Origin: a virus
Taxonomy: Duplodnaviria > Heunggongvirae > Uroviricota > Caudoviricetes
IMG/VR virus record: IMGVR_UViG_2609459850_000002
Reading direction: 5' to 3' (one strand)
Length of the DNA stretch: 50,003 nucleotides
Of the stretch, positions 42,001 through 45,000 are shown piece by piece (position 1 is the first letter of the stretch; every line of letters begins with the position of its first letter). The position numbers were made by a program.

Positions 42001-45000
42001 TCATCATGTCTGCGGTAACTTTTTGTTCGACCTCCCCGGTCAGCATATCCTGTGCTTCAGATTTTACTGGCCGCTCTTCGGTTACCCGGGATTCACCTTC
42101 GCCAGCCAGAAACCAGGTGTGACCAGTTTTATCAACGACGCCATTTCTTTTGAGTTCCCACAGCTCGTTGAGAACCTCTTCACGACTGATATCAAGTCGC
42201 GCGGCCAGTTCTACCGATGTGGCTTTTCCCATTGCTTTCAGTGCGTCAAATACGGTTTCCATTAAAATTTCCTCCGACAAAATCGTTTCTCAGATTCAAA
42301 TAAAACCAGCTGCCTTCCGGCGTTCGTATTCCTGTTTCAGCCGTTCAATTGGCGTTGGCCCTTGCGGGTGTTTAGCCCCTTCCAGTTGTCGTCGCACTGG
42401 CGGAACACTCATCCCGTTACCAACATGCTTTGCCCATTTCGTCAGTTGCCGTTCCGCAAGTCGTTTTAACTCACCCTGCGTCATCTGGCGCTCAATCCCT
42501 CTGGTACGCATTTCGAGGCAGATGTGGTACAGCACAGGCTGAGGCCACGGATATTTGTCGCTTCCGTCATATCGCCAGGACTCATCACGCCAGCGGCGGT
42601 ACTCCTCCATCACAGCATCCACCGTCAGGCCAAATGGATTGGCCCCGCTTTCTGAAATCAGCGCCACAAACTCAGCCAGGTCCGGAGGCCATGTTTCACC
42701 CGCCCGGCAGCGGTCCATGCACTGGCGGCAGACCTGTCGGATTTGCTGCTCAGTCATCGCGCCAATCTGTGCAATCCAGAGCTTCGAAGGTGCGGCCCCG
42801 TTCTTCTGGGTCCAGCGGTTCGAATAAACCTCCCCCATGAGTTCCCACAGCTTCCAGACCGTTTCCGTCGCTGATAAATCCGTTTTCACGTTCCCACTGC
42901 TCACGTGCTGCCCGAATTTCCTGAACTGCCCGTGATGCGGTGCCACCTGGTGCTGCTGCATGGTTTACCCCCTTGCTGACTGGCTTAACCTGCGCCCTGA
43001 CGTGATTTACGTGACGGGCGAATTTCTGCTCCCACTGAACCTGCGTGAAAACTTTCCCCTCCGCTGCCCAGTAGTCCCGGAAAGCGGCAAGTTCAGCAGG
43101 TGTAAATTCCGGCTCCGGCAAAGCCATCCCCCACAACGCAGCCCGTCGTCGAAAATCCGGCGACGGATGCCAGTCATCGACCATCGGAAATTTCCCGATG
43201 GGTTCGCTCAGTCCATCCAGGGATGCAGGTTCTGCTGCCTGCAACGGCGTACCACTCGACTCACTGGTCGGAGCACTCTCGCGCACGTGCGCGTTATGTG
43301 TGGGGTTTAATTCTTTATCTGTATCTTTATCTGTCGTGACTCGTCGTGACATGTCGTGACATATGCGTGACTCGTCGTGACACCCCTCATTCTGTTTTCG
43401 TAATTTTTCCCTCTCGCGCTGCGCTCTCTTGCGCTCTGCCGGGGATTTCGCGGTTTGTGAAACGTTGCCATTGTCCTCTTTCAGTACCTGGCGTTTTTCC
43501 CATCCGGTGATTAAATCTCCATCAAGTACCCGCCCCTGCATTGCCTGTAAAATTAAATCAATTACTTCTTCCGTCACATCAAGCGCACTTGCTAAATCTT
43601 CCGTCGTGACATCAATGTGACCACGTAGTGACACGCCGTGACATGTCGTGACATTTCGTGACGCGCTCACCAGAAGGTGGATATACACTGCCATCACTGT
43701 TGCAATTGGCTGCCCTGACACCCTGGCAATTGTTCGCCACTTAGGGTCATTTGGCATGTCATGCCATAATCTGAGCCAGGCGTTAGCCATACTCACCTCT
43801 TCTGATACCGAATCTTTTTACTCACAAATTGCCGGAAGTGATCCGGTATGAATATTGCGAGTCAATGCACAGCCACAATATTTCCTGCAGGGCCACCACG
43901 ATTCATCTGGTTGAAACCAGCGATCGCCACTGCGACAAAATCATCAGCGTCTCTCACCAGTCGTTCCCGCGTCTCCACCAGCTCCCGAAAATAAGCTGAA
44001 CTGTGGCTGCGCATTCGGGCCACCAGCAGAGGCGGCATTGCTTTTTCGATCGCTGGTAACAACGCCTGAATTTTTTTAACCGCATCAGGAGTGTCTTTCT
44101 CCACCCAGCGGAAAATTTTCTGGGTATTGCGAGCCAGGGCTTCCGGATGGCTGTCGTCATATAATTCCGGGAACGTCATACCAAGCTCAAAATAAGCCCG
44201 GGTTATTTCAGCTGCCGGAACTTTTTCACCGTCCGGATGCGCCCAGGCATTCATCGCCATGCGGATGTGCTCATGCCTGATTTTCATGAATCAACTCCGA
44301 TGCATTTGGTGTGTTAGCCTTGAATCCAACAGGTAAGCCGTCGGTTGGATTCGGGTAAATATCAGGCCGGAGTTCATGAGGTGTAACCTCGAAATTCGTT
44401 ACTTCAGCAACACGTAATGCTTTTTCAGGGCTGAATCTTTCATAGCCCCCCAGCACTCGACTTACATGCACCTGAGATAAACCCGTTAGCTTCCCAAACT
44501 GTAGCTGGGTGATATGTTTCTCTTTTAAATAGTCTCTTAAGTTCATAGCCAACCTTCTACGTTATGCCTCGAGCAAATATTAGCCCCGCTAATTTTAAAG
44601 ATCAATAGCCAGACTATCTTTGATAATATTGGTAAAACAAATAAACTCTATGTATGAAAAAAACACGCGAAGTGATTGCAACTCCAGAAGCGAGCAAGAA
44701 TTTAAAAGCCGCATGGAATGCAAGAAAAAAAGAGCTGAAGCTGACTCAAGAGCTGGCGGCTGAGTTGTTGGGATTCGAATCTCAAGGCACCGTTAGCCAG
44801 TATCTGAACGGCAAGATACCGGTAAATACCGACGCTGCGCTAAAATTTGCGGCTCTGTTAAAGGTAAAACCAGAGGACATTCGAGAAGACCTTAAAGACT
44901 TAATGAATTATGTAAGATCATCAGATACTTATGATGATAACTTTTCAGGCAAAGGATGGAGGCTGGTCAATGAAGAACAGGCAGAGTTACTTAACCTCTT

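Follow-up and report, generated by a model that had tools for sequence, protein, structure and literature searches.

Two clusters of short repeats, one of them beside an AT-rich tract, lie within a single gene of a Caudoviricetes virus, a prophage of E. coli (IMG/VR record IMGVR_UViG_2609459850_000002), and the locus raises the question of what these clusters are for and why one gene should hold two of them. We analysed them within the 50,003-nucleotide stretch of DNA in which they were found (hereafter, the window). The preliminary description of this DNA had counted about five and about six copies of tCGTGACa with a period of about 10 bp, together with the AT-rich tract and an offset of about 270 bp between the clusters, and each of these observations was confirmed. 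Since the gene is encoded on the minus strand, the repeat reads GTCACG in the gene sense. The cluster previously called the second is, in the same sense, the promoter-proximal one; it is termed array A here, and the promoter-distal cluster array B. The features of the locus are as follows.

42296-42961, minus strand: lambda-P-like helicase loader (long ORF of 221 aa; 212-nt overlap with the 3′ end of the initiator gene)
42750-43790, minus strand: replication initiator gene, an analogue of O (346 aa from the ATG at 43790)
43280-43293, no strand assigned: perfect 14-bp GC-rich palindrome CGCGCACGTGCGCG, directly past the AT-rich tract
43304-43332, minus strand: AT-rich tract, proposed DNA unwinding element (DUE), AGATAAAGATACAGATAAAGAATTAAACC in the gene sense, coding for DKDTDKELN
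43333-43382, minus strand: array B, five direct GTCAC(G) iterons at spacings of 10, 11, 10 and 10 bp, coding for CHDESRICHDMSRRVT in a disordered linker
43573-43577, minus strand: single inverted iteron core, GTGAC in the gene sense, in codons V72-T73 of ‘LDVTE’
43603-43665, minus strand: array A, six direct GTCAC(G) iterons at spacings of 10, 10, 10, 11 and 11 bp, coding for the loop SRNVTTCHGVSLRGHIDVT (aa ~44-62)

On the plus strand, the GTGAC cores are located at 43336, 43346, 43356, 43367 and 43377 in array B, and at 43606, 43617, 43628, 43638, 43648 and 43658 in array A, so core spacing is 10-11 bp in both. The inverted core is found 33 bp past the last direct repeat of array A. The arrays are offset by 270 bp and separated by a gap of 229 bp, which is coding sequence with 48% GC. 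Tandem Repeats Finder detected arrays of period 10 at 43333-43381 and at 43628-43662, and a repeat search of the window grouped the repeats of both arrays as one family. Eleven of the 44 plus-strand GTGAC occurrences in the window fall within the two arrays, while no other 60-bp stretch contains more than two; the Poisson probability of at least five within 60 bp is 3e-9 (about 1.6e-4 over the window as a whole). The longer word GTCGTGACA, at up to one mismatch, occurs 21 times in the window (8 of these within the two arrays), compared with 10.4 +/- 3.2 times in shuffled sequences, and none of 100 shuffles attained 21. Chance clustering of the GTGAC repeats is thus excluded. The repeats are short and direct, and are not 19-bp dyads, which is a caveat to any reading of them as lambda-type.

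The gene in which the arrays are embedded had been taken for a lambda O gene. They do lie inside an initiator gene, but this gene is an analogue of O rather than a homologue: a Pfam scan (E <= 0.01) found DnaT (PF17948) only and no match to Phage_rep_O (PF04492), which excludes lambda O homology. The predicted protein begins with an N-terminal winged-helix-like ‘replisome organizer’ domain (aa 1 to ~100) and a basic helix; a disordered linker (aa ~137-190) connects these to a C-domain of the DnaT-like, ssDNA-binding type (aa ~203-269). The C-domain is assigned by its Pfam match (E 9.7e-18; 64 bits, cut-off 25) and by the similarity of its structural model to DnaT 4ou6 in Foldseek (E 8e-6, TM(target) 0.87-0.92, 59% identity); a sequence search of the PDB likewise returned only DnaT, for this domain. 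The match is confined to residues 194-280, and the protein scores below the full-length DnaT equivalog model NCBIfam NF002770 (97 bits, cut-off 201). As a whole, the protein matches PHROG 1408/3729 ‘replication initiation protein’ (E 1e-92 to 1e-116). RefSeq names it ‘DnaT-like ssDNA-binding domain-containing protein’, and some of its relatives ‘phage replisome organizer’.

The N-domain matched no Pfam family in the scan. It resembles TIGR01714 (phage_rep_org_N) weakly (E 6e-4; 19.9 bits, far below the curated cut-off of 49.8). Matches to ‘replisome organizer’ and ‘DnaD-like’ families of PHROG have E values of 1e-5 to 1e-8, and the ‘replisome organizer’ families PHROG 4880 and 5968 score E 8e-6 and 4e-4, respectively. 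These scores suggest at best a distant relationship to the phage replisome organizer family. A Foldseek search with the modelled N-domain returned winged-helix proteins (MarR/MepR, CRP), all non-significant with E > 0.1, so that the winged-helix assignment is a weak one.

The downstream gene matches Pfam Phage_lambda_P (PF06992; E 5e-16), and its residues 19-221 match PHROG_109 ‘P-like helicase loader’ (E 2e-63). Four relatives likewise keep the long ORF open; the RefSeq version has 153 aa and would start at 42757. With the order repressor, cro-like, ydaT-like, initiator, P-like, the operon presents the genomic setting of a lambdoid replication module with a P-like loader.

Codon usage in relatives bears on whether the repeats matter as DNA. 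Among 19 relatives with pairwise DNA identities of 63-87% and GC3 values of 0.32-0.83, the iteron codons are without synonymous variation. In array A, which occupies about codons 43-62 (~130-190 nt into the gene), the codons GTC, ACG, GGT, CAC, GTC, ACG and GTG show no variation at all (19/19 or 17/17), and TCA is found in 18/19. The valine codon of the inverted core is GTG in all 17 sequences with a valine at this position, while other valine codons vary freely. By comparison, the codon entropy at other invariant residues in the 19 loci is 0.3-2.4 bits, and mostly at least 0.7. In array B, serine is encoded by TCA in 23/23 sequences, valine by GTC in 22/23 and histidine by CAC in 19/19, where background usage of these codons is 19%, 21% and 58%, respectively. 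Synonymous-codon shuffles that retain each protein and its codon usage recreated the two-array pattern in 0/100 trials (1/100 in one locus). These patterns indicate that evolution preserves the arrays as DNA, not as protein, and they lend support to the earlier proposal that the repeats are iterons of a lambda-type intragenic origin.

A structural model of the protein shows what this might entail. In the AF2 model, array A encodes a loop of low confidence that lies between helices 29-45 and 63-70, and the linker encoded by array B has a pLDDT below 50; both arrays map to structurally permissive segments. The requirement on the DNA would then dictate which residues are encoded in a surface loop and in an inter-domain linker, both of them permissive places.

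The AT-rich tract has a GC content of 24%, compared with 52.5% for the entire window, and contains TCTTTATCTGT twice. An (AGATAA/AGATAC)n tract abuts array B wherever the arrays are present, also in genomes with a GC content of 60-69%, which strengthens the previous suggestion that the cluster beside the tract is the likely ori. The tract is also the mosaic recombination junction of the initiator gene: a megablast breakpoint at window positions ~43312-43332 parts a 3′ half like that of Rac-SA53 from a 5′ half like that of phages Evi and Tritos. A second patch of low GC content (27%) at 43540-43572 follows array A in the gene sense; it was rejected as a second DUE, as it is not retained in GC-rich relatives.

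Directly past the AT-rich tract is the palindrome at 43280-43293. Its palindromy survives sequence change, with CGCGCATGCGCG and CGCGCATGTGCGCG found at this element in two other loci (L001 and L007, respectively). An unusually strong hairpin occurs 25-60 bp past array B in 10 of 33 loci, where 3.3 would be expected (combined p 4e-4, a rough value). In ori-lambda, too, a palindrome comes next after the AT-rich tract, and by this analogy the palindrome is possibly a third origin element. The region 43280-43302 also gives the sole ‘terminator-like’ matches near the arrays; between the arrays, neither promoters nor terminators were predicted above shuffle expectation. Two other kinds of candidate origin part were rejected: within 43280-43700 there are no DnaA boxes at up to one mismatch (the nearest is at 43818) and no IHF sites.

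If one protein recognizes both arrays, their sequences should change together. In one protein family, we found three repeat words: GTCACG (~25 loci), CGAACGC (9 loci) and GTAACG (4 loci). Of 44 loci, which come from Gamma- and Betaproteobacteria, 34 retain both arrays, and in these 34 a change of word affects both arrays together, at the ~10-bp spacing. This concerted switching shows that arrays A and B have the same specificity, and fits the earlier proposal that the additional cluster serves either as another array of initiator-binding sites or in regulation. Gene conversion between the arrays, rather than independent selection, could lie partly behind the concerted evolution. In the remaining 10 loci, mostly the most distant members, no recognizable copy of array A is present, so this array is not indispensable to the family. 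Where present in relatives, array A has 3-4 copies at the same position in the gene (the present sequence carries a 21-bp, two-unit insertion relative to Evi and Tritos), and array B has 3-5 copies directly abutting the AT tract. Nearly all GTCACG-type loci have the inverted core at the same place in the gene. The distance from the last A to the first B copy ranges over 188-319 bp and clusters at 227-229 bp, without strict helical phasing; the differences mostly correspond to changes in copy number at the edges of the arrays.

The arrays are co-inherited with the N-domain, with the recombination breakpoint at the AT tract. In Rac-SA53 ydaU, which has the same C-half and a different N-domain, no tandem iteron array was found. 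The recognition helix and wing are nearly identical in sequence between groups with different iterons, so the covariation cannot be pinned to the canonical reading head. The groups do differ by a 9-aa indel and an altered basic helix after the wing. In only two segments of the protein are the differences between iteron-specificity groups systematic, and the loop at aa 44-62 is one of these. Candidate specificity determinants are this loop, encoded by array A, and the basic segment at aa ~100-135.

Taken together, we consider it probable that the arrays are iterons bound by the N-domain of their own gene’s product, and that they constitute a bipartite intragenic phage replication origin. On the best reading of the sequences, array B and the AT-rich tract would form the core of the origin, with array A as an additional set of sites for the same initiator. 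Induction would be followed by rightward early transcription, which would yield the initiator and the P-like loader, as the gene order suggests. Initiator protomers would then bind the GTCACG repeats, and because the 10-11-bp spacing would place them on one face of the helix, each array may seed a cooperative filament. The complex on the five copies of array B would melt the adjoining (AGATAA)n tract, a step suggested by the invariant adjacency of the two. The identities of the domains suggest that the DnaT-like C-domain would hold single-stranded DNA and/or dock the P-like loader, which would deliver host DnaB. Array A (six direct copies and one inverted, 229 bp upstream of array B) would bind the same protein, and might aid initiation either by looping to array B or by raising the local concentration of initiator.

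Other explanations of the repeats have to be weighed against this origin model. The idea that a peptide motif, repeated or conserved, or else chance gave rise to them, with no function as DNA, draws on the high conservation of the encoded peptides SRNVTRGHxDVT and CHDESRxVT in the protein alignment. The preliminary description had named a repeated peptide as a possible source of the repeats. However, successive copies rotate through frames 0, 1 and 2, which leaves no room for a peptide repeat; iteron codons are synonymously invariant where those of other invariant residues vary freely; the protein did not regenerate the arrays in the 100 shuffles; and the peptides fall in a low-confidence loop and a disordered linker. 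With chance excluded as well, this explanation is scarcely credible. The gene could also contain two independent origins, each array having its own AT patch (43304-43332 for B, 43540-43572 for A), since both arrays are followed by a local GC minimum in the gene sense (24% and 27%). We regard this as very unlikely: the second patch is ordinary coding sequence for the helices of a folded domain, and GC-rich relatives do not share its AT-richness, whereas the tract after array B is kept everywhere. It is also improbable that the arrays are bound by a different protein, such as a YdaT-like or Cro-like early phage product or a host factor. The near-invariance of the recognition helix and wing between iteron groups would be in line with this. 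On the other hand, the arrays always accompany the N-domain in Gamma- and Betaproteobacteria, despite differing C-terminal modules and neighbours, and the same C-half with another N-domain carries none. The protein does differ by group, in the indel and in the basic helix past the wing, and host factors would not be expected to switch specificity inside one host range.

A more serious alternative, although we still think it unlikely, accepts array B and the AT tract as the origin but regards array A as a regulatory operator that has no part in initiation. The bound initiator might place a roadblock in the way of transcription through the initiator-loader operon, and thereby repress its own synthesis. 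Alternatively, array A might titrate or ‘handcuff’ the initiator and so limit firing, in the manner of the control arrays of iteron plasmids, for which P1 incA and F incC are precedents. Array A has the specificity of array B and begins early in the gene, lacks a conserved AT-rich neighbour given the loss of the 27%-GC patch in GC-rich relatives, is dispensed with by some distant members, and has an additional inverted copy that array B does not; all of these properties would suit an operator. Against this, the origin of a phage in its lytic cycle has no obvious need for copy control, and there is no promoter-like site near array A. The strictly conserved phase of the copies with the helical repeat fits a roadblock and looping alike. 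A further, speculative extension, to which we give little weight, is that the locus is a self-referential specificity module in which the repeat word and the peptide it encodes co-determine recognition, and/or that array A is an operator coupling initiator synthesis to origin occupancy. As the array A word encodes the putative reading loop, a change of iteron word would automatically alter this loop; and as genomes carry up to five copies, a module of this kind would also cause co-resident prophages to cross-fire or compete.

The bipartite origin, if correctly identified, is widespread. The iteron-bearing half of the gene is present in 2185 of 5426 complete E. coli genomes (~40%), including O157:H7 and O145:H28, with up to five copies per genome, and prophages of Pseudomonas, Bordetella, Chromobacterium and Serratia, among others, contain relatives. 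Among deposited phage genomes, only 24 have the module, and none of these is a model phage. Plasmids as support for autonomous replication were rejected: matches in PLSDB are prophage-like regions or ~51-kb Pseudomonas circles that resemble phage genomes. A search of the phage collection and of the literature found no experiments, for any member of the family, on DNA binding, on unwinding or on activity as an origin, and in the literature on the family, Rac oriJ, ydaU and two-cluster phage initiator genes, with subscription journals incompletely covered, we found no account of the element. The module is thus apparently very common yet unstudied. If our interpretation is true, it would define the replication origin and the initiator specificity for a large share of enterobacterial lambdoid/Rac-like prophages, and would predict cross-activation of origins between co-resident prophages with the same iteron word. 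It would also provide a clean natural example of binding-site arrays dictating protein sequence inside a folded domain, and a ready set of orthogonal initiator/iteron pairs with which to study specificity (GTCACG, CGAACGC, GTAACG).

Since an origin inside the initiator gene is textbook, the advance would lie in variant and scope, not in kind. [quoted passage not shown] The present locus resembles it in that the predicted origin lies inside the initiator gene, with array B followed by the 24%-GC tract in the gene sense, and in having a lambda-P-like helicase loader directly downstream. The N-domain and the iterons are, as in lambda, inherited as one specificity unit with a recombination junction at ori, and the number of iterons differs among relatives (4 versus 6), as it does between lambda and Stx phages. 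On the other hand, the initiator is not homologous to lambda O and has a DnaT-like C-domain; the repeats are direct, 10-11 bp long with a 6-bp core, rather than the ~19-bp dyad-symmetric iterons of lambda; and there are two arrays 229 bp apart, one of them within the coding sequence of the DNA-binding domain, instead of one contiguous array.

In phage SPP1, oriL lies within gene 38 and consists of repeated boxes, bound by G38P, beside an AT-rich DUE; G38P recognizes two discrete regions and has no AAA+ domain (PMC5737612). The initiator described here likewise lacks an AAA+ domain and has repeat boxes and a putative DUE inside its own gene, and the sub-threshold TIGR01714 score of its N-domain would indicate a weak sequence kinship. 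The second SPP1 site, oriR, is a distant locus outside the gene that contains oriL, whereas both arrays lie in one gene here; host range, C-domain and loader type also differ. A bipartite origin made of two short-iteron sets would be shared with satellite phage P4, in which ori and crr are two separated sets of 8-bp iterons recognized by one initiator, the second set being required in cis. In P4, however, ~4.5 kb separate the two sites, a primase-helicase serves as initiator, and neither iteron set is known to lie inside the coding sequence of the DNA-binding domain. In PICI/SaPI origins, two sets of short iterons flank an AT-rich melting region outside the rep gene (PMC6092414). The present locus resembles these in having two iteron sets in one putative origin, but its AT tract is past array B and not between the arrays. 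It shares a putative winged-helix initiator, helix-phased direct repeats, and a second array of the same specificity near the rep gene, with iteron plasmids. In those plasmids (P1 incC/incA, F incB/incC, R6K), a winged-helix initiator binds helix-phased direct repeats of 17-22 bp, a second array of the same specificity flanks the rep gene and serves in copy-number control, and DnaA boxes are usual. The locus analysed here differs from them in having no DnaA-box consensus, and in being, as we predict, the origin of a phage in its lytic cycle.

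The preliminary description had reported iteron clusters and an AT-rich tract at 43304-43665, and the repeat positions, GTGAC counts and Poisson probability given here bear it out. The clusters, array A (promoter-proximal) and array B (promoter-distal), lie within a minus-strand initiator gene, so that GTCAC(G) in gene sense reads GTGAC on the plus strand. The relevant features are:

43606-43662 (gene nt 129-185), minus strand: array A, six direct GTCAC(G) copies, spacing 10, 10, 10, 11 and 11 bp
43573-43577: inverted single copy, 33 bp beyond array A in gene sense
43336-43381, minus strand: array B, five direct copies, spacing 10, 11, 10 and 10 bp
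43332-43304, gene sense: AT tract AGATAAAGATACAGATAAAGAATTAAACC, 24% GC, directly after array B
43293-43280: perfect 14-bp palindrome CGCGCACGTGCGCG, after the AT tract in gene sense
42750-43796, minus strand: initiator ORF, containing the whole interval
44654-45115, plus strand: RacR/CI-like repressor
44271-44552, minus strand: YdaS/Cro-like HTH protein
43862-44287, minus strand: YdaT-like gene
42296-42961, minus strand: lambda-P-like helicase loader (PF06992, E 5e-16)

The two arrays hold 11 of the 44 plus-strand GTGAC sequences in the 50-kb window, and 60-bp stretches elsewhere hold two at most (Poisson P for at least five in 60 bp, 3e-9). Compared with close relatives at loci L002, L003 and L006, array A carries a 21-bp in-frame indel (43622-43642) of exactly two iteron units, encoding TCHGVSL (six versus four copies). 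At a Pseudomonas locus (L026) the array-A loop is expanded far more, with extra direct and inverted copies. Elsewhere in the window, another tandem repeat (16363-17057; 162 bp, 4.3 copies, 96% identity, corresponding to 54-aa units) lies in the long C-terminal extension of a portal protein gene (ORF 15897-18644, minus strand; PF04860 at residues 54-382).

The initiator gene is located in a lambdoid early-right operon, in the order repressor, YdaS/Cro-like, YdaT-like, initiator, P-like loader and then DUF1627, and the window has a 100% match in the E. coli NCCP15648 chromosome. Translation likely starts at ATG 43790 (346 aa), because homologues begin MANAWLRLW. The arrays had been placed inside an O gene; they do lie within the initiator gene, but a Pfam scan of its protein gave no Phage_rep_O match, which rules out a lambda O homologue. 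The C-terminal part is instead a DnaT ssDNA-binding domain (PF17948, E 1e-17; Foldseek 4ou6, E 8e-6, 59% identity), and in structural alignments residues ~194-280 (42750-43200) are 57-60% identical to that of host DnaT (4ou6, 6aeq). The phage initiator thus couples a replication-restart-type domain with a lambda-P-type loader. Read from ATG 42961, the loader ORF is 221 aa long, and its 5' end lies over the final 212 nt of the initiator gene (42750-42961) in another frame; synonymous and nonsynonymous counts in this overlap are small. PHROG_109 and the Pfam P family match the loader from residues ~19-55, upstream of its 153-aa RefSeq start, and PHROG_15931 is a profile of fused initiator and P.

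The N-terminal 160 residues have no Pfam family, strong matches to PHROG 'replication initiation protein' and weak 'replisome organizer'/DnaD-like matches (TIGR01714, E 6e-4). An AlphaFold2 model built from 69 homologues confidently predicts a helical, winged-helix-like N-domain (helices 2-14, 16-25, 29-45, 63-70 and 74-84; hairpin 85-96), then a basic helix (117-134), a disordered linker and the DnaT-like domain. In the protein, array A corresponds to the loop joining helices 29-45 and 63-70 (pLDDT 65-69); array B and the AT tract correspond to the disordered linker (pLDDT <50).

Arrays inside a coding sequence could be a by-product of a repeated peptide, the possibility that the preliminary description had set against its own reading. 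However, the copies fall in frames 2, 0, 1, 2, 1, 0 (array A) and 1, 2, 1, 2, 0 (array B), so that no repeated peptide underlies them. To collect relatives, one genome per species was scanned for protein patterns, using the iteron-independent peptides WHDMPND and PKWRTI[AS]R[IV]; the 47 loci obtained come from Gamma- and Betaproteobacteria, plus a few MAGs under other labels. Codons were compared across 19 GTCACG-type loci (pairwise DNA identity 63-87%, GC3 0.32-0.83). In array A, Val GTC, Thr ACG, Gly GGT, His CAC, Val GTC and Thr ACG are each found in 19/19 and Ser TCA in 18/19, and the inverted copy uses GTG for its Val in 17/17, whereas codon entropy at other invariant residues of the domain is 0.3-2.4 bits, mostly at least 0.7. 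Array B uses TCA for Ser in 23/23 (background 19%), GTC for Val in 22/23 (21%) and CAC for His in 19/19 (58%). When synonymous codons were reshuffled within each gene, preserving protein and codon usage, none of 100 trials per locus regained the observed periodic array pair, apart from one trial in 100 at a single locus. Frame rotation, invariant codons and reshuffling together rule out the peptide explanation, and these sequence comparisons show selection of the repeats as DNA.

The repeat word itself differs between groups of relatives: GTCACG in about 25 loci (window included), CGAACGC in nine, and GTAACG(C) in four, two of which mix GTAAC, GTGAC and GTTAC. Each group has its word at both array positions with ~10-bp spacing, so the encoded peptides recur at both sites too (for example loop SNATERGRT with linker QPNATER, or ETTGNAGVTQG at both sites of a Sphingomonas locus). 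In an unbiased scan, 34/44 loci had the two regions sharing a 5-mer of 9-12-bp periodicity. The other ten are mostly the most divergent members, and some have the linker array alone or use another word, for example ACTACGTA in L042 (2501-3691) and L050 (2501-3805). In these distant members, from Serratia and Pantoea, ~130 aa are inserted after the wing; their tandem word ACTACGTA/CTACGTAG, at ~10-bp spacing, is confined to the insertion region and the loop position has no array. The comparison thus shows that arrays A and B carry one co-evolving word, phased with the helix, which supports the earlier suggestion that the second cluster is a further initiator-binding or regulatory array. The H2-H3-wing segment is nearly identical between word groups; what does differ systematically is the loop encoded by array A and the stretch following the wing (9-aa indel; ERKREQRERE versus ERAKRWR).

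Wherever arrays are present, the last B iteron leads directly into an AT/purine-rich tract of (AGATAA/AGATAC)n or (AGAAGA) type, encoding (DK)n, (DT)n or (EE)n, which is kept even at 60-69% genomic GC. In contrast, the 27%-GC patch adjoining array A (43540-43572) is ordinary helix-coding sequence whose counterpart in GC-rich relatives is not AT-rich. This comparison supports array B as the putative origin core, in line with the preliminary assignment of the AT-adjoining cluster as likely ori. A GC-rich palindrome or hairpin recurs 25-60 bp beyond array B in many loci with differing, unrelated C-terminal modules, sometimes with compensatory changes (arms CACCTACC...GGTAGGTG in locus L010, ACCCACC...GGTGGGT in L018). 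Palindromy is kept with different centres in the window, L001 and L007, and 10/33 loci exceed their own-background 90th percentile for a hairpin (3.3 expected; rough combined p 4e-4). By analogy with ori-lambda, the palindrome may be a third origin element. Such structures beyond the AT tract were also seen in L004, L025 and others.

The initiator gene is recombinant, with its junction (43312-43332) exactly at the AT-rich tract. Up to ~43332, the 3' half matches ydaU of Rac-SA53 and PPompW-type prophages at 92-93% identity; from ~43312, the 5' half matches phages Evi, Tritos and others at 87-88%, and these phages have unrelated C-terminal halves. The tract therefore doubles as a module-exchange point. 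Since Rac-SA53 ydaU has a different N-domain and neither GTCAC repeats nor another tandem array, the alignments show the N-domain and both arrays to be inherited as one unit, as expected of an initiator-specificity module.

The constant position of array B beside an AT tract, the P-like loader and the DnaT-like C-domain form the basis of the proposed mechanism. The gene's own product would bind the iterons via its N-domain and build one-face oligomers on each array; the array B complex would melt the AT tract, the DnaT-like domain would hold the exposed strand and/or the P-like loader, and the loader would recruit host DnaB. Array A could aid through looping or a higher local initiator concentration, or could instead be an operator or roadblock linking initiator synthesis to occupancy.

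Of 5426 complete E. coli genomes, 2185 have the 5' half with both arrays (at least 80% coverage), at up to five places per genome; many genomes, including O157:H7 and O145:H28, carry 3-5 copies in different prophages, which would predict cross-activation or competition among co-resident origins. The label 'partial' on many of the family's database proteins fits assemblies that break at repeated prophage modules. In the protein collection the N-domain has 970 matches at E <= 1e-3, and many of these, in Pseudomonas, Bordetella, Chromobacterium and Azotobacter, are 60-67% identical. Only 24 deposited phage genomes have the module.

Strong comparative evidence thus favours the lambda-type iteron-origin reading. 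Ori-lambda is ordered as iterons, AT-rich tract and palindrome, and the elements here follow the same order. Bipartite iteron sets occur in P4 (ori and crr) and in plasmids with control arrays, but none of these, PICIs included, is known to have both arrays within the initiator coding sequence and one in the DNA-binding domain. A literature search of incomplete coverage found no paper on this initiator family, Rac oriJ at sequence level or the two-array arrangement. In PICIs, the iteron sets lie on both sides of an AT region (PMC6092414). By analogy, the element may function like ori-lambda/O-P, with iterons and AT tract mid-O (PMC7466680), and SPP1 oriL/G38P, with an origin of AB boxes and DUE within the organizer's gene and two discrete regions bound by G38P (PMC5737612). 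The initiator itself falls outside the lambda O family, and the N-domain of Gram-positive replisome organizers is at most a very distant relative. Although the principle is textbook, and an intragenic phage origin well known, the family is ubiquitous and uncharacterised, and its dual-coding and covariation signal is unusually clean; what is new here is a probable bipartite origin of short direct iterons with an unrelated initiator.
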